DNA of 64,000 nucleotides. Source: an uncultured Gammaproteobacteria bacterium (GTDB lineage Bacteria; Patescibacteriota; Microgenomatia; 2-02-FULL-39-11). The notes below the pieces were generated by a model. The model saw nothing but the letters and a program-made list of their open reading frames with translations. It was not told where the DNA came from and did no database searches. Position numbers and translations under genes: made by a program. The stretch spans positions 1,123 to 65,122 of the forward strand of contig CAZFNL010000011.1 of assembly GCA_964520615.1 (NCBI GenBank), given 5' to 3'. Shown piece by piece: positions 19,509 to 28,002 of this stretch (the first letter of the stretch is position 1; each line of letters starts with the position of its first letter).

Positions 19509-20183
19509 CTAAACCCTTTTGGCAGTCACAATCAGCCTTTTGCTGTCGGCAAAACCGGTACATGTATAAAGCGTTAAAACCTCATCTCTTGTCGGAGCAA
19601 TTACTTCAGTTTGAGATGGTAACACCTCCTGAATATTATTTATCTTATATTGATACCATTTATCGCTAGTAAAGACATAAATATCTTCTCCATTTTTAAC
19701 ATTTTTAAGAGGTAAGAACATGCCTTGCCTGGCATGGGCGAAGATGACTTGGTTACCCTTTTCTCCCGGGTAACCCGAACCCTGCCCCCAACCAGCGCCG
19801 CTCGGGAATACTTCCCAATAGCCATCTATCACTTTTGCTTCCTTCACGGGCAGATCTATATCAACACTTGGAATAAGTACCCGCATGGGAGCTTCCTGAT
19901 TCTTCTTTATTTGTGTTGAAAGAAGCAATTTGTCCACCTTCACTGGTTCCTGGGAAAAAGAGGATACTTCTCCGTTTTGTGGCACAGTAACTGTATTTGC
20001 GCTATTGTTTGACGAGTTTGAACTTGCGGGAGTACCGGAAAGATAAAATCCAAAGCCAATAAAAAGGATCCCCCCGGCAAGAAGATATAAACGGATTTTT
20101 TTCTTCTCGTTTTTGAGGATCCTTTTTAACGTGATCTCTTTATGTCTATTTCTATTTTTGACCTTACGTAAAGTAGAAGACAT
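19509..20183 (-). CDS. Sortase-family transpeptidase
   Basis: N-terminal TM, catalytic His (VIFAHARQ), LTLYTCTGF (TLxTC Cys) and Arg in SKRLIV. Confidence 0.75.
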   Translation of the reverse strand: MSSTLRKVKNRNRHKEITLKRILKNEKKKIRLYLLAGGILFIGFGFYLSGTPASSNSSNNSANTVTVPQNGEVSSFSQEPVKVDKLLLSTQIKKNQEAPMRVLIPSVDIDLPVKEAKVIDGYWEVFPSGAGWGQGSGYPGEKGNQVIFAHARQGMFLPLKNVKNGEDIYVFTSDKWYQYKINNIQEVLPSQTEVIAPTRDEVLTLYTCTGFADSKRLIVTAKRV

Positions 20184-20647
20184 AGCACTCCAGCAAGAAG
20201 TATTATATCAGATATGGAGAGCTCTGAACCTCCTGTATACGAAAGTCCCAATACCTGCGGGCCTCCAATTCTTACTCCAGTGCTTGTTCCACCACCTCCA
20301 CCGCCACCCGAACTTTCGCTAACTGATGGCGACCATCCGCAATATGGACCGTAATACGATTTCCCCGGCGCGCAAGGATCTTCTGTAGAACTACTGCTTG
20401 TGGAAGACGCTTGTGTAGCAGTAGGACTTGATGGAGTCACATTTGGTCCACCTCCTGACGTCGGTGTCGGCTGACCTTGTGGCGGGCTAGTTGGAAGAGG
20501 AGGCACTGTTACCGTCCTCTCTAAAGAAGGAGAAGTCGGTCTTGCTGCAGGCCTCTGCCACCAATCTGCCAAAACACTGCCGTTTAGCATCACACTTAGA
20601 ATAAATACTATTCCAAATAAACTGATGACCGATACTAATTTTTTCAT
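20126..20647 (-). CDS. Pro/Ser/Thr-rich surface protein with C-terminal sorting-signal-like anchor (candidate sortase substrate)
   Basis: N-terminal signal peptide and a PT-rich low-complexity region. C-terminus has ...LSYTGGSELSIS followed by a hydrophobic stretch and a basic tail (RSKIEIDIKRSR). Confidence 0.5.
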   Translation of the reverse strand: MKKLVSVISLFGIVFILSVMLNGSVLADWWQRPAARPTSPSLERTVTVPPLPTSPPQGQPTPTSGGGPNVTPSSPTATQASSTSSSSTEDPCAPGKSYYGPYCGWSPSVSESSGGGGGGGTSTGVRIGGPQVLGLSYTGGSELSISDIILLAGVLCLLLYVRSKIEIDIKRSR

Positions 20648-20692: not shown

Positions 20693-23149
20693 TTATAAAA
20701 GCACTTCAAGAAGCGCATTCACATACTTTCCCAGGTGAAACCTCTTCCTTCTTCTTATAAGTATCAGGAAAAATGCTAGTGGAACAACTGACAACCATGA
20801 TTCATTTACATTCAACCTTGCTCCTCCCAAAAGCATCCCGGCAAAACTTGTTTCTGTAGCCTTGGCAAAAGCCGGAGACACGAAACTGCCGCGAAGCATT
20901 CTGTTTTGGCCGTTGTTTTGGCCCAATATGTAGGTCTGCGGATCCTGTTGTAAATATTCCTGTGCTTGGTTTGCCAGTTGATATTTTTGGTTTGCGACAT
21001 TTGCAGTTGCCAGATAGTAACTCGACGGGTAATAATATCGGGCCTGCTGAACCTGCTGTTGTGTCTGGAGGCCGCTTGTATCTGTCGGATAATAGTATGA
21101 GTAATAAGTATGTGAGTAATTTTGGCTATCAGCTGTTTGTTTTGTTGCGGTCACACCGCCTATATTGGTATCTGCGGTATCAAATGACGGTAAAGGATCC
21201 AAGGTCGGTGTAGGAGATATTGCGCTTTGTGAATTATTACTGCTCCCTGTTGTACCTGAGTTAATTGTGTCTCCACTTCCGGCTTCAGCCGTCTGATTAT
21301 AGTTTTGTCCTGGTGTCACCACATTCCCCAGGAAATTACCAAACACATTCACCAGAAGTACGGCAAAATTCTTGGCGGTTACATTTGTGTTAACCAGATT
21401 AACCAGATTTAGTCCAACCTGAGCATTACCCGTCTGTATTTGTCCTTCTCCGGTATTGTCCTGGGCTTTATTGTTACCGGTATCGGCATTTGCAGTAATA
21501 TTGTTTACAATACTAGCACTATTGTTATTGGATAAAGAAGTATCTGACGTACTATTATAGGTAGAGTTATTTGTTGAAAGTGCTCCTGTCCCGCTACTGC
21601 CTACATCCGTAGTATACGTACCAGACCCTCCACCTCCTGTTTGTTGCACAGGTAAACCGTTTGAAGCAGATGTCGCTCCCCACGGAGCTCCCATTATATA
21701 ACCCACCCATTTACCCATATCGTTTACTATGACAAGCCATACAGTTCCACCCTCATCCACTGCGTTCGTATTGGCTACTGTACTATTGCTCACTTGCGTG
21801 TTGGAATTTCCCGTAGTTACGCTTCCTCCACCGGTATTTATGGAGGCTGAGTTGTTTCCAGTATTGGCGGTAGCGTTTACTGTACTTGTGATATCAGCGG
21901 TATTATTATTGGTTAAGTTTGTCGAATCTGAAGTGTTGGATGTGGCATTATTTGTTGACAGCGCACCAGTAGTATTGTTGGTCACATTTGTACCCGCGCT
22001 TGTTGTGTTTGAAGCTGTAACATTTCCGGTGGAATTTCCAGTACTCCATGGCAAAACAATATTTCCCGCCAAAGTCCCATAAATATTTACTACACCCATC
22101 AGCCAATTACTGACGTTTAAATTGGAGTTAACCATGTTTATAATGTTGCCAAGAGCTGTAGCATTTCCGGTCTGGATAGTACCGTTACCCGTGTTGTATG
22201 ACGCACTGTTTTGACCGGTAACTGCCTGCAAATTTATATCATTTACCAGTTGAGCGTCATTTCCGTTGGCTTCTTTGACTGAAAAGGAATTATTTGCTGG
22301 CGCATCATTGGATGAACCTGCTCCCGTCACTGAATTTTTGGATACTGTAGGAGAGGCACTTGAGAATCCGCTGCCTGCACTTGGATCGCCAGTCTGGAAG
22401 ACTATATCACCTGTCTGAGTACCATACACATTGTAAGTAGAGAAACCTCCCACTCCTGAGATATTACTGTTTAGTTTATTTAAGAGATTTACTGCAGATT
22501 GGGTATTCCCAGTTGATACCTGGCCGTTTAGAGTATTAAGGTCAGCATAATTGAAACCTGTATTTGTAGCGGCATCAATCTTATTTTGGATATCAGCCAA
22601 ATTTTTATTCAATACCTGCTGCCAGTTGGAATTTGTTTCTGAAGCGCTATTTGTGGATAACGCGCCAGTTCCGACATTCGCCGGATCGCTAACGCTACCG
22701 TTTGTGCCAGTGTCACCTGTAGGACCTGTCGGACCGTTTGTACTTGAGGCGCCCAAAACATTATTCGTGTTTGTTGTACCTGTACCATCTGTGGAACTGC
22801 TGCCTGTCGGTTGAGAACCGGAAGTACCTGATGGGCCGGTAGAACCCGATGGGCCAGAAGGATTTGTAGCGGGCGGATCACTACTGGTCGGTGCGGGAGC
22901 AGTTGTTGGAGATACGGAAGAATTGGTAGGCTGCGGAGCGCTGGTGGGTGCCGGTGCGCTCGTTGGCGCGGAAGCACTAGGTGGTGAAGTCGGGGCCGGT
23001 GCGCTGGGCGGACTGGTTGGTGCAGGAGCTGAAGCTGGAGACTGCGCACTCTGGCCGTATACCACCGGAACCCATACCAAATTCCCTCCGGTAAATACCA
23101 GGCTTAAAATAAGTATAAAACTGATAATTTTGTTTCTAAATTTTGACAT
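20693..23149 (-). CDS. Large secreted Asn/Thr/Gly/Ser-rich repeat protein (paralog 1 of 3), putative surface fibre or beta-solenoid
   Basis: Signal peptide, then PAPTSPPSA x4 repeats, then long degenerate repeats (e.g. ...NTGNNSASINTGGGSVTTGNSNT...). Ends in a C-terminal hydrophobic segment followed by RRRKR. Confidence 0.6.
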   Translation of the reverse strand: MSKFRNKIISFILILSLVFTGGNLVWVPVVYGQSAQSPASAPAPTSPPSAPAPTSPPSASAPTSAPAPTSAPQPTNSSVSPTTAPAPTSSDPPATNPSGPSGSTGPSGTSGSQPTGSSSTDGTGTTNTNNVLGASSTNGPTGPTGDTGTNGSVSDPANVGTGALSTNSASETNSNWQQVLNKNLADIQNKIDAATNTGFNYADLNTLNGQVSTGNTQSAVNLLNKLNSNISGVGGFSTYNVYGTQTGDIVFQTGDPSAGSGFSSASPTVSKNSVTGAGSSNDAPANNSFSVKEANGNDAQLVNDINLQAVTGQNSASYNTGNGTIQTGNATALGNIINMVNSNLNVSNWLMGVVNIYGTLAGNIVLPWSTGNSTGNVTASNTTSAGTNVTNNTTGALSTNNATSNTSDSTNLTNNNTADITSTVNATANTGNNSASINTGGGSVTTGNSNTQVSNSTVANTNAVDEGGTVWLVIVNDMGKWVGYIMGAPWGATSASNGLPVQQTGGGGSGTYTTDVGSSGTGALSTNNSTYNSTSDTSLSNNNSASIVNNITANADTGNNKAQDNTGEGQIQTGNAQVGLNLVNLVNTNVTAKNFAVLLVNVFGNFLGNVVTPGQNYNQTAEAGSGDTINSGTTGSSNNSQSAISPTPTLDPLPSFDTADTNIGGVTATKQTADSQNYSHTYYSYYYPTDTSGLQTQQQVQQARYYYPSSYYLATANVANQKYQLANQAQEYLQQDPQTYILGQNNGQNRMLRGSFVSPAFAKATETSFAGMLLGGARLNVNESWLSVVPLAFFLILIRRRKRFHLGKYVNALLEVLL

Positions 23150-23175
23150 TTTAAACTACTGTGTTAATCAATGTC

Positions 23176-23260
23176 ATCCTGAATTTATTTCAGGATCTCT
23201 GAAAATTCCTGAGGGAACTTACAGATTGGACCTTACTGGATGCTGAAACAAGTTCAGCAT
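23176..23260. promoter_or_regulatory. Two similar palindromes (ATCCTGAA-N5-TTCAGGAT and ATGCTGAA-N5-TTCAGCAT) 64 bp apart, upstream of the 818-aa surface-protein gene
   Basis: Read directly: 23176-23196 and 23240-23260 have the same half-site architecture. They lie 27-110 nt upstream of the start codon at 23149. Confidence 0.35.
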
Positions 23261-23378
23261 GACAGATATGTACAGTTCGGGATGACTTTGTTAAAAACTT
23301 AAATTTTTTTATTACGTCTTTCCCGGTGGGAACCCCTTTTCCTAGGATGGATTCCCACCGAGGAAAAAACGTCTTTTC

Positions 23379-24506
23379 TTATTGGATGACTGTCAAAGAA
23401 TCATTTAGATGGTTTGAGATAGTCTTCCAAAGATCTGACAATCCTGCCCATACTGAGCCTCCGCCTGTATTGTAGTTGGAAGCATTTGATCCTGTGTCAG
23501 CAACGTCATTATCAGTGTTGGTGACGTTAGAGTTGTTCGGATTGTTTACTGTTGTTCCGAAACTATTTAACAGGGTTGTACGATTGTCAGAAAAAGGTCC
23601 GGTGACGCCGTTACTACCATCGTTGGCGAAGCCGCCCATGGCCATCTGGATGGTTGTAGTACTTATGTTACCTTCATTATTCATTCCTACTCCAGCAGAT
23701 GATCCGCCGGTTCCGATACCTCCTCCAAGTGTATTGTAGGAAGCACCGTTATTGCCGGAACGTGACACGACAGCTACATTATTACCCAAATTCAAATAAT
23801 TAGGATTGTTTACTGTTGCGTTTGCCGAGTTTACAACATCAACATAATCAGTTGAAAATGGTCCTGTAGTATCGTTGGCAACGGAATTACCGCCTGCACC
23901 TCCTGCTCCCGCAGTTATACCTGTGGCACTGTCATTTAAGTGATTCTGAAGCATGACATTTGCCTGGGTAGATCCTGTTTGGACATTTGCCGGCCCGGTG
24001 TTGTAATTAGCATTGTTGTTTCCTGAATCAGATGTCGTGTTCACGTTGTTGCGAACATCAGCCTGATTGCTGTTTACAACATTTACGCGCTGACTGTTTG
24101 TTATGGTGACTCTATTGTCAGAACTTGGTCCGGTAATGTTATTGGAACCTGAGTTATTGGCTGCGGACGGTCCACCGTTTACAGTAGTAGTGTTTATATT
24201 ACCGACTGTATTCAAAGTGGCATTCAATGTCGCATTTCCTGTCGTAATATTGCCTCCCAATGTATTGTAGGAAGCGCTATTGTGACCGGTGTTTGATACT
24301 GCTGAGACGTTGTTTGTCAAATTAAGATTGTTTGTATTTGTCACATTGACGTCACTGGTATTGGTTATATTGCAGTAATCATGCGAAAGAGGTCCGGTTG
24401 TGCCGTTGCTGCAGTTGTTGCCTGCTGCCATTGCCGGAATAACTGCTCCGATTAAAAGAGCAATTGATCCTGCTATAGTTGCAAATTTTTTCATTATTCT
24501 ATTCAC
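23379..24506 (-). CDS. Secreted Asn/Thr-rich repeat protein (paralog 2)
   Basis: Signal peptide, then the NNCSNGTTGPLSHDYC...VNNPNYLNLGNNVAVVSRSGNNGASYNTLGG repeat units shared with 26996-27607 and 20693-23149. Probable ATG start at 24494 after a GGAGG RBS. Confidence 0.6.
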   Translation of the reverse strand: MNRIMKKFATIAGSIALLIGAVIPAMAAGNNCSNGTTGPLSHDYCNITNTSDVNVTNTNNLNLTNNVSAVSNTGHNSASYNTLGGNITTGNATLNATLNTVGNINTTTVNGGPSAANNSGSNNITGPSSDNRVTITNSQRVNVVNSNQADVRNNVNTTSDSGNNNANYNTGPANVQTGSTQANVMLQNHLNDSATGITAGAGGAGGNSVANDTTGPFSTDYVDVVNSANATVNNPNYLNLGNNVAVVSRSGNNGASYNTLGGGIGTGGSSAGVGMNNEGNISTTTIQMAMGGFANDGSNGVTGPFSDNRTTLLNSFGTTVNNPNNSNVTNTDNDVADTGSNASNYNTGGGSVWAGLSDLWKTISNHLNDSLTVIQ

Positions 24507-24717
24507 CTCCTTCCGTCTTATGATGTATCAAGACTGTCTGCCCTCTGCCTGCCTAGGATTAAGCTAAGTTTTCAGTCTTGCCGCTCTCGCGGGTAAAATT
24601 TTTTCATAATGTCAGTAAGCTTTTAAGTTACCGCTGTCAAATTCCAAATAAAAAGAGGTAAGTCATCCCGAAATTTTCGGGTATTCTTACCTCCGTTGGC
24701 GGTCGGTATTTTTTATT

Positions 24718-24918
24718 TTAGATATCTTTGATATTGTGATTTGTCTTTTTTATATTTCTTTCAGTAATCTGTGTCACTTTGAAATCCTGTACATAAATTT
24801 CCACAGAACCAAAACCGCGCACATTTTTCAGCGCCTGCTTTATTTCTTCAACCAAGTCGCGAGTAACTTTCTTTGTCGAATAGTCCACCATTTCAATTTT
24901 GGGGCAGTTAACAGGCAA
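24718..24918 (-). CDS. Small hypothetical protein
   Basis: 66 aa. Followed on the minus strand by a conserved 17-nt motif and a hairpin terminator. Confidence 0.3.
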   Translation of the reverse strand: MPVNCPKIEMVDYSTKKVTRDLVEEIKQALKNVRGFGSVEIYVQDFKVTQITERNIKKTNHNIKDI

Positions 24919-24942
24919 ATAATGGCAGTTATGAGGCAGAAA

Positions 24943-25524
24943 TCAGGAAGGAAAATTTACAGGAATTGTTTCCTTCTTACCATCCAACTCACCTACAAAT
25001 AATTTGAAATTTCGCACGTTGTCCGGTACTACAAATCCGACTCTATCCAGCTTGGTGGAAATTGCGGCAATAGGCACCAGGTTATTGTGCAAATCAGGCG
25101 CAAATTTATTGCCGTCATCATTGTTATATGTAAGCCTGATGAGGTCTCCTGGGAAAACATTCAGGGACGAAGTGGTATCGTTCTTGTATTCCAAATTCAA
25201 TATGAGGAAAAGCTTTTGGTTTGTGGCTGTGTAAGTTTTATTATTTACCATCACCTGGTTTGTCTTTTCGGTTGAAGCAATAGTAAATGTAATTTTATTT
25301 TTAGTGGGCTTACCCTGGTTATCCAAAGCAGTGAAATCAAAACTTTTGTTTATCTGGGCACTGATGCTTTTGGCAGCTTTGGTTGTGCCTTCAGACCGGG
25401 TACGCATAGCATTGATATTTACCGCAAAGATGGCAAAGATCAAAACAACAACACCGACCACCAGTTTTTTATGCTCTTTTGCAAATTCCCGAATTTTTTT
25501 CATCCAATTTTGTGTTTTAGGCAT
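24943..25524 (-). CDS. Membrane-anchored extracellular beta-sandwich-like protein (DUF4352-like), hypothetical
   Basis: N-terminal TM (LVVGVVVLIFAIFAV) followed by a 150-aa extracellular domain. Confidence 0.4.
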   Translation of the reverse strand: MPKTQNWMKKIREFAKEHKKLVVGVVVLIFAIFAVNINAMRTRSEGTTKAAKSISAQINKSFDFTALDNQGKPTKNKITFTIASTEKTNQVMVNNKTYTATNQKLFLILNLEYKNDTTSSLNVFPGDLIRLTYNNDDGNKFAPDLHNNLVPIAAISTKLDRVGFVVPDNVRNFKLFVGELDGKKETIPVNFPS

Positions 25525-25744
25525 AATCTTAATACGGATAAAATTTCCGTCTGGCCTTTAATAGATTGAGCGGTAATCAATTTTAATTGGACAGTTTTTG
25601 GCAGGGGAAAGTATGAATCCTTCCAACTTTGTGGCAGCTAAGGCAGAGTAAAAAGATGTTATACTGCCCGTCCTGACTTGTCAAGATGACAACACCGTAA
25701 CAAAATATATCAGACTATAACTCTACTCTGATAAAATTGTGCTT

Positions 25745-26938
25745 TTACGCGACAAAAAAACCTAAAGTATAGTATATGAAAAATATCAAGAGCAAGACGA
25801 GTGAAAAGAAAACATAAATTATTTCCCAAAATCTAGCTGGTCTTAGCCTACCCATAGACATAAATATTGGGAAAAATATGAGGGCATAGCGGGAAACACC
25901 ATTGAGTATATATCCCCGGTACTGAAAGAAATAGAAGACAAGAAAAAAGACCAAAAGAAAAATCCAGTCTTCCCTCCTGATTTTCCTGCAGGAAACATAA
26001 AGATAAGCTATAGCACCGGCTGTTATGACAAAATCCAAATCGTTGGGAAGGTTCAGGGGACTCACCAGCAATATTTTTGCCTGCGACAGCAGCGGATCCC
26101 AGGGAAGAGGCAGCGTCACTTTCCAGGCGGAATTGACTCTAAGGGCAACAAGAGAAACACCGGTCATCGCGTCCTGAAACCCGGCTATGAGAAAAAATGA
26201 CAGCGGGATAAGAATTAAGGAAAGCAAAGCCGGAATTTTATTTTTTATCTTTTTGCTTTTCCAGAAAATATAAGCTAAAGGCGCCAAAAGCACACCTCCA
26301 TATGGTTTAGTCACTGTGGCAAAGATGGCAAATAATGTTGCTGTAAACGGCCTGTCTTTTTTAGCAAATATGAGGCAAGCCAGGACAAAAGAAATAAAAA
26401 GAGACTCTGCATACGGGACAAGCAGGAAAAACGCGGCCGGAAAGATAGCATATGCCGCAAGCAACCTCACCGCGATTTTCCCGTCATTCTCCATCAAAGT
26501 AAAATAATAAAATAAGAAAAATGCTAAGGCGGAAAGAAATGTATTTAGGAAAAAAGCTGCTACCGGAAATGTTGCCGGACTTACCAACGTCAGTAATTTT
26601 ACTGCCCAAGGATACAGAGGGAAAAACTTGGCCGTCAATGGTTCACCTCTATAATTAGTCCTCGCCACTTCCTCATACCAGAGAGCGTCAAAGCGGTGAA
26701 GCGGTTGGACAATATAATACCAGGAATCATTTCTATCGACGGGAATATTGCGCACCAAATCCATCTGAGCGGTAGTTAGCGGAATTTTGGGAAATATGGA
26801 AAAAAGGGAAAAACCGGCAAACAAAAGCAAGAGGCGCAGAAACAGTGTGAAAATTATTGAGAGGATAATGCCTGTTTTTATATTTTTCCTATCCGTTTTC
26901 ATCAACGAAAATATAAATGTATTTGCCGCAAACGTCAA
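25745..26938 (-). CDS. Polytopic membrane GT-C-fold glycosyltransferase-like protein (putative mannosyltransferase family)
   Basis: About 10 TM helices. First extracytoplasmic loop carries an Asp/aromatic motif (HRFDALWYEEVA) like DUF2029/PMT-type GT-C enzymes. True start is probably the M at ~26899. Confidence 0.5.
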   Translation of the reverse strand: MTFAANTFIFSLMKTDRKNIKTGIILSIIFTLFLRLLLLFAGFSLFSIFPKIPLTTAQMDLVRNIPVDRNDSWYYIVQPLHRFDALWYEEVARTNYRGEPLTAKFFPLYPWAVKLLTLVSPATFPVAAFFLNTFLSALAFFLFYYFTLMENDGKIAVRLLAAYAIFPAAFFLLVPYAESLFISFVLACLIFAKKDRPFTATLFAIFATVTKPYGGVLLAPLAYIFWKSKKIKNKIPALLSLILIPLSFFLIAGFQDAMTGVSLVALRVNSAWKVTLPLPWDPLLSQAKILLVSPLNLPNDLDFVITAGAIAYLYVSCRKIRREDWIFLLVFFLVFYFFQYRGYILNGVSRYALIFFPIFMSMGRLRPARFWEIIYVFFSLVLLLIFFIYYTLGFFVA

Positions 26939-26963
26939 GAGCTCTCCTAAAAGGAGAGCTCTT
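26937..26963. repeat. Perfect 11-bp-stem palindrome AAGAGCTCTCC-TAAA-GGAGAGCTCTT
   Basis: Read directly. Lies between the paralog-3 stop (26996) and the GT-C gene start, with no adjacent U-tract on either strand. Confidence 0.4.
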
Positions 26964-26995
26964 AAACTGAAATATTCAGTAAACTGCTCACTATA

Positions 26996-27607
26996 TCATT
27001 GAGATATCGTAATAGATGAACTGTTTACATTATTGCTCACTCCTACATTTACCAAAGCATCTCCGGTTCCCACTCCTCCACCGACTGTATTCAGGTTTGC
27101 CTGATTATTACCTGTATTTACGGTTGTGTTCACGTTATTGGTAACGAAAGCAGTGTTGGTTAACATAAAACCAACCCTCTTATTTACATTTACGGTGACG
27201 TTATTGGTGGAACCGTAACCGGTAATGGAGTTTCCGCTGCCGGTCAATGATGTATCCAAAACAGCTGTCTGGTTTACGTTTAGGCCGACATTGTTTACTG
27301 TATTGGCTACAGGATTGATATTTGCCGTAGCGTTTCCAGTGAGAACTCCGCCCAGACTCGCGTCTGAATTCTGGTTATTCTGGTTTCCGCCGGTATTTGT
27401 GTTGGTAGTTACATTGTTGGTAACATTCCCATTATTACCCAGCATAAACCTTACAATCCTTTTTGCCTTTATGGTGCAATAGTTAGAACTATAAGCACCT
27501 GTCGGACCGTTTCCACAATCCACAGCCAGTGCCGGTGCTACTGTCAAAAGCAGCATTCCTGCTCCAATGGCCATTCCCAATATATTTTTTTTCATAAATC
27601 TTTTCAC
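26996..27607 (-). CDS. Secreted Asn/Thr-rich repeat protein (paralog 3)
   Basis: Signal peptide, then CGNGPTGAYSSNYC and repeated VTNNVxTNTNTGGNQxN units. Start region is conserved with paralog 2 (GGAGGTGAAnAGAnTnATGAAAAAA). Confidence 0.6.
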   Translation of the reverse strand: MKRFMKKNILGMAIGAGMLLLTVAPALAVDCGNGPTGAYSSNYCTIKAKRIVRFMLGNNGNVTNNVTTNTNTGGNQNNQNSDASLGGVLTGNATANINPVANTVNNVGLNVNQTAVLDTSLTGSGNSITGYGSTNNVTVNVNKRVGFMLTNTAFVTNNVNTTVNTGNNQANLNTVGGGVGTGDALVNVGVSNNVNSSSITISQ

Positions 27608-28002
27608 CTCCTTTCTTTATTGATTTTCTTACTGCACAAAAATAACACTCTCCTCCCTCGGTCTATAAGAGACCTCGGGATTCGAGTGTTTTCCTTTGAG
27701 CAGAAGGCAGACTATGATACATAGGGCAGCAAGTTAAGACTCGGGCAGCGATATTTTCCGACTAAAAAACTACACCGGGCAGGTGTCGAAAGACAAATGG
27801 AAACAAAAAAGCAATCCTTTACAGGGATTGCTTCCGTTTGCGGTCGGCAAACTCTACTTCCACTGTAAAATAATTTTTTCTATTTTGTCAATACCCAAGT
27901 TTTTAGCTAAGTTTAGAGATAATATAATACATTTATATATCTGAAAACAATATGGGAAATGACATGATTTTATCGAGATCTGTTTTGAAGGATATGTTGC
28001 TA

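Follow-up and report, generated by a model that had tools for sequence, protein, structure and literature searches.

Three Asn-rich paralogs in one gene cluster

The window analysed here, by which we mean the whole 64-kb (64,000-nucleotide) stretch of DNA, comes from an uncultured Gottesmanbacteria-like Patescibacteria genome and carries three minus-strand open reading frames of 818 aa (20693-23149, p818), 375 aa (23379-24506, p375) and 203 aa (26996-27607, p203), all rich in Asn, Thr, Gly and Ser (Asn 13-20%; the four residues together about 50-55%). Their number, lengths and composition agree with a sequence-only reading of this DNA, as does the paralogy it claimed: an HMM built from 54 p375 homologs recovers p375 (E 4e-144), p818 (E 7e-44, four domains) and p203 (E 2e-29) and no other ORF of the 64-kb window, and p203 aligns to the first half of p375 at 39% identity. 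In the closest relative, the p203 ortholog shares only 52% identity. The genes are indeed clustered, but not strictly in tandem as had been stated, since three other genes (mem397, tm193 and a DUF2292 ORF) separate p203 from p375.

The GTG codons at 24506 (p375) and 27607 (p203) are contained in the Shine-Dalgarno sequence GGAGGTG and homologs begin at ATG; the likely true starts are therefore ATG 24494 (p375, 23379..24494, 371 aa) and ATG 27595 (p203, 26996..27595, 199 aa), both on the minus strand. By prediction, p375 is a secreted protein of four modules (A-B-A-B) that has an A-x-A signal-peptide site and a Cys32-Cys45 pair but lacks an anchor, and p203 a secreted two-module (A-B) paralog with a Cys31-Cys44 pair. 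The Cys-containing module TGP.S..YC attributed to all three proteins is found only in these two, p818 having no cysteine at all. The near-identical start regions of p375 and p203 had also been taken as a sign of recent duplication. A strong Shine-Dalgarno sequence precedes p375, p203 and p173, a gene unrelated to the paralogs, and the pattern GGAGGTGA-N(4-10)-ATGAAAAA likewise occurs 5' of p173; since the unrelated gene shares it, the pattern reflects a strong ribosome-binding site and a Met-Lys-Lys signal-peptide start, and recent duplication is, also in view of the 39% identity, not supported.

The long paralog p818 (111 homologs) starts with a signal or hydrophobic helix and a linker of about 120 aa rich in Pro, Thr and Ser. 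This linker is repetitive, as described, although in place of four copies of PAPTSPPSA it has two exact APAPTSPPS units followed by shorter, degenerate APxPTS units. Four modules follow on the minus strand: aa 147-249 (22403..22711; i-E 4e-11; AF2 strands 177-246, pLDDT 73-92), aa 265-381 (22007..22357; i-E 2e-13; strands 291-361, pLDDT 81-95), aa 386-466 (21752..21994; i-E 1e-10; strands 405-476) and aa 518-594 (21368..21598; i-E 1e-12; strands 532-607, pLDDT 80-95). Beyond them lie a Gln/Tyr-rich stalk, a conserved RG.F.SPAFAKATETS motif and a C-terminal TM helix (aa 783-801, 20747..20803, minus strand; an AF2 helix kept in about 55 orthologs). The hydrophobic anchor and the RRRKR reported behind it are present and conserved in orthologs, with 15 further residues after them, a short C-terminal helix with a conserved KY.N.LLE..L tail; no LPXTG-like sorting motif adjoins the TM helix of p818.

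A conserved 88-residue module with a predicted solenoid fold

The motif originally noticed (..N.V.N.NTG.N.AS.NTGGG..) is real, yet it is just the core of a longer module of about 88 aa (TGP.S.N...v.v.N.N.a.v.N.v.a.s.TG.N.A.yNT.GG.i.TG.A....v.N..N..t). Within p375, each of the four modules is homologous to the others (hhalign probability 98.5-99.9%, E 1e-15 to 1e-34), and the autocorrelation of Asn has maxima at lags of 88 and 19 residues. We recovered 112 homologs for p375; conservation is position-specific over 54 homologs of p375 and 49 of p818, down to 34-40% identity, with 35 (p375) and 71 (p818) invariant columns, mostly Asn, Gly and Thr, and with low dN/dS (0.09 and 0.10, respectively). 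The wider family counts 2,865 representatives at E<=1e-3 and 285 at E<=1e-30, and such conservation of the repeats in homologs argues that they are not a low-complexity artefact. A scan of a genome collection gave only 13 loci, an undercount of the family, as it relied on a single peptide pattern.

Pfam and NCBIfam scans of seven cluster proteins found no family for p818, p375 or p203 (in Pfam-A at E<=1, p203 matched ALK_LTK_GRD only and the other two nothing), nine long relatives were likewise without a match, and phmmer and profile searches of PDB sequences with the paralogs returned only noise. In other module-bearing relatives, the module is joined with DUF11, CARDB or Big_7 adhesin domains and accompanied by C-terminal TM anchors or dockerin-like ends, one of them adjoining a cohesin-like gene. 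Our literature search found no description of an Asn-rich family with repeats of about 88 residues. The three proteins belong to an undescribed family that is apparently largely confined to Patescibacteria.

The modules are predicted to fold as a beta-solenoid: each would comprise about four rungs of some 19 residues, forming a beta-solenoid or beta-roll, flattened and with two strands to each turn, that ladders of Asn and Gly would stabilise. The prediction agrees in type of fold with the solenoid that the sequence-only reading anticipated. Only one of the five AF2 models of p375 exceeds a pLDDT of 70 (80.6, 69.6, 53.4, 44.3 and 32.3), and p818 averages 58, with module cores at 80-95 and residues 21-160 and 617-708 disordered. 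Foldseek gave no significant match in the PDB.

Sortase, candidate substrate and the genes between the paralogs

Downstream of p818, the neighbouring sortase that had been pointed out is clearly present (19509..20183, minus strand, 224 aa; PF04203 E 6e-26). It has an N-terminal TM segment and the catalytic motifs FAHA (His), TLYTC (Cys) and KRLIV (Arg), and scores above the cut-off of TIGR01076 (63 bits), while no class-specific NCBIfam model reaches its own. Its gene overlaps by 58 nt that of p173 (20126..20647, minus strand), a small, secreted, Pro/Thr-rich protein with an ADWW.RP N-terminus and a Cys pair in DPCAPGKSY.GPYCGWSP. The C-terminal end of p173 has a tripartite signal, VLGLSYTGG followed by the hydrophobic IILLAGVLCLLLYV and the basic RSK...KRSR, the only C-terminal sorting signal among the ORFs of the window; LSxT[GSA], the TM segment and the basic tail are kept in 10 orthologs. 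The earlier suggestion of a sortase substrate nearby therefore holds, as a prediction. Sortases are near-ubiquitous in Microgenomates, where substrates were not reported (PMC6744442), and our search of the CPR literature found no reported sortase substrate or substrate motif. C-terminal sorting signals were also looked for in p375 and p203, where there are none.

Between p203 and p375 lies mem397 (25745..26938, minus strand), a polytopic membrane protein that is probably a GT-C glycosyltransferase of the PMT_2 type. The proposed GT-C neighbour is supported through a syntenic ortholog at locus L013 (46% identity; PF13231 PMT_2 E 1.2e-10, 42.3 bits, the cut-off being 26.1) but not by the window protein itself, which has no Pfam match at E<=1 and a weak one to NF046093 (E 7.7e-7); four of five orthologs lack a PMT_2 match. 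The density of N-glycosylation sequons, which had been proposed as a check, is rejected as evidence for glycosylation, as no enrichment appears over composition-preserving shuffles in any of the three proteins (p = 0.19, 0.057 and 0.65).

The next gene, tm193 (24943..25524, minus strand), is delimited by its ORF and synteny and is predicted to encode an N-terminally membrane-anchored, DUF4352-like beta-sandwich protein. Eight of 10 orthologs weakly match PF11611 (E 1.4e-5 to 0.09; at best 25.8 bits, where the cut-off is 25.9) and the window protein is absent from the Pfam matches; against PDB sequences, both tm193 and mem397 gave only noise. A 57-aa DUF2292 (YezD-like) ORF follows (24718..24891, minus strand; PF10055 E 7.5e-8), at the same position in loci L002 and L003 and 100% identical in the latter. 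Between it and the p375 leader is a sequence-conserved terminator-like element (24650..24706, minus strand) consisting of ACCGACCGC[A/C]AACGGAGGTAAG, a loop, CTTACCTC and TTTTT, with a degenerate copy upstream of p203 (27807-27847). An Rfam search with it found no match, and RNAalifold on the conserved upstream element showed a short invariant hairpin only, with no useful covariation.

A conserved cell-envelope operon

The order tm193-p375-p818-p173-sortase recurs in at least 10 Gottesmanbacteria loci at protein identities of 42-65%, the sortase being 3' of p173 in all of those whose sequence reaches beyond p818. In Gottesmanbacteria and at a Woykebacteria locus, tm193 lies upstream of p375 with just the DUF2292 ORF, where called, in between; the Woykebacteria locus continues with secreted, anchored and short paralogs and has no sortase, and other CPR loci carry paralog sets in tandem. 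Judging by gene content and order, the three genes are part of a conserved cell-envelope operon. As sorting signals are missing from p375 and p203, and the sortase from the Woykebacteria locus, the sortase connection is perhaps limited to p173.

What the proteins may build

Patescibacteria make up a very large share of bacterial diversity, and their life in attachment to other cells puts the surface at the centre of their biology; to our knowledge, almost none of their surface proteins has been characterised. Described here is a large repeat family (at least 2,865 cluster representatives) that Pfam and NCBIfam lack, and for which a module is defined and a fold predicted that can be tested. A conserved operon connects it with anchoring in membrane and wall and with a probable GT-C glycosyltransferase, and p173, with its LSxT[GSA] signal, is put forward as a concrete candidate for a sortase substrate.

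The predicted solenoid repeats, the secretion and anchoring signals and the conserved envelope operon together make it probable that the paralogs are components of a surface structure yet to be seen. The surface layer, fibre or host-attachment structure proposed earlier is plausible in view of the secretion signals, the anchors and the gene context, and, on the whole, we lean with moderate confidence towards Asn-rich solenoid proteins that form a structural or adhesive coat or fibril on the cell surface, possibly with a role in host contact. Sec would export all three proteins; p375 (four modules) and p203 (two) would be released free of any anchor, and p818, its four modules borne on disordered stalks rich in Pro/Thr and in Gln/Tyr, would stay tethered by its C-terminal transmembrane helix. 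It could then act as a base that the secreted short paralogs join through their homologous modules, in the manner of long and short chaplins or of CsgB and CsgA. Their operon partners would be the membrane-anchored DUF4352-like protein and the PMT_2/GT-C enzyme, which plausibly O-glycosylates the Pro/Thr/Ser linkers, and in Gottesmanbacteria also the sortase and p173, the latter as a wall-linked accessory tether.

The paralogs might instead be independent, monomeric beta-solenoid adhesins or ligand binders, e.g., with a flat Asn/Thr face that binds host-cell polysaccharide, mineral or ice-like surfaces, the cluster being a mere family expansion without co-assembly. The N-terminal disulfide pair and the C-terminal strand of p375, both conserved, could be solenoid caps like those of monomeric proteins. 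However, Gottesmanbacteria and Woykebacteria alike have kept a fixed set of anchored long and anchorless short forms with tm193 as a dedicated membrane partner, and an anchorless adhesin would diffuse off a cell that has no outer membrane; we regard this alternative as unlikely, though it deserves serious attention.

The surface coat or fibril that we prefer can be worded more boldly, as an unrecognised patescibacterial structure in which p375 and p203 stack end-to-end on the homologous modules of p818, the membrane-anchored nucleator, the DUF4352-like membrane protein aids assembly, the GT-C enzyme glycosylates the components and, in Gottesmanbacteria, the sortase-attached PT-rich thread p173 ties the structure to the wall. 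Capped p375 ends, if such they are, argue against open-ended stacking, and we offer this version as a rather doubtful conjecture. If it is true, CPR bacteria would have, in addition to type IV and Pam pili, a third type of surface filament, one that is hydrophilic and functionally parallels chaplins or curli in bacteria without an outer membrane.

An S-layer-type two-dimensional lattice, with p375 as the abundant subunit held by p818 and/or wall-linked p173, appears improbable, as Pfam and NCBIfam reveal neither SLH nor any other known domain for S-layer anchoring, and no lattice-forming domains are obvious in a rod-like solenoid of four modules. Biased sequence without a defined fold, on which AF2 hallucinated a solenoid, would fit the composition, the four low-confidence p375 models and the Foldseek result; the invariant residues at fixed positions, the profile-profile homology of the modules, the low dN/dS and the regular periodicity have already largely refuted it, and we give it very little credence. 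Finally, an adjoining sortase and the ability of CPR bacteria to build novel pili (the Pam system, 10.64898/2026.03.03.709456) might suggest sortase-polymerised Gram-positive-type pilus subunits or Pam-type donor-strand pilins, a most improbable reading given the lack of sorting signals in p375 and p203, the tail behind the TM helix of p818, a predicted fold that is a four-fold internally repeated solenoid and not an Ig-like CnaB or donor-strand truncated Ig, and the absence of chaperone-like genes.

Comparison with known systems

The likeness to the flattened right-handed beta-helix of SufB/SufD, cytoplasmic Fe-S assembly proteins, is one of fold class only (6-7% identity). The local geometry of the predicted fold comes near the RTX blocks of CyaA (68-80 residues at 1.9-3.4 A rmsd), and RTX proteins and the RsaA S-layer protein are, like the paralogs, extracellular and repeat-built; GGxGxD nonapeptides and RTX matches in Pfam or NCBIfam are nevertheless absent, Asn stands in place of the Ca-binding Asp, p375 has few acidic residues, and export is predicted to use a Sec signal peptide, a type I secretion signal being absent. 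From curli (CsgA/CsgB) and Fap, the paralogs differ in lacking the Curlin_rpt (PF07012; S-x5-Q-x-G-x-G-N-x-A-x3-Q) and Fap signatures in Pfam, NCBIfam and PDB profile searches, in modules grouped as 88-aa super-repeats with Foldseek E-values that are not significant, and in a locus without CsgG/E/F or FapF partners, in Patescibacteria that have no outer membrane.

Pam pili occur in Saccharimonadia and Microgenomatia (10.64898/2026.03.03.709456), and PamA and PamB are likewise CPR-specific, Sec-exported surface proteins with Cys pairs and membrane-anchored accessory proteins. Going by their description, Pam pilins are set apart by a nine-strand beta-sandwich plus truncated Ig and by donor-strand exchange, as against the repeated solenoids predicted here, and by other operon content. 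Like LPXTG surface proteins, p173 has a signal in three parts, with LSxT[GSA] followed by a hydrophobic segment and a basic tail, and the p173 and sortase genes overlap. The p173 motif differs in having Ser instead of Pro at position 2 and a varying residue (G, S or A) at position 5; no NCBIfam class model fits the sortase, and the solenoid proteins carry no signal.

Most short chaplins carry a Cys pair, like p375 and p203. There is no sequence relation to Streptomyces chaplins, whose PF03777 (DUF320) is unmatched by the paralogs; their unit is a hydrophobic amyloid domain of about 40 aa and not a hydrophilic, Asn-rich solenoid module of 88 aa, their long forms end in a C-terminal sorting signal whereas p818 has a TM helix and the candidate sortase substrate is the separate, small p173, and assembly is here a proposal. 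The organisation is nonetheless alike, with multi-unit long forms fixed to the cell (the sortase-anchored ChpA-C), secreted short forms with one or few units (ChpD-H) and a sortase in the system; in chaplins, it is on the domains of the anchored long forms that the secreted short paralogs have been proposed to co-assemble (PMC5618241).

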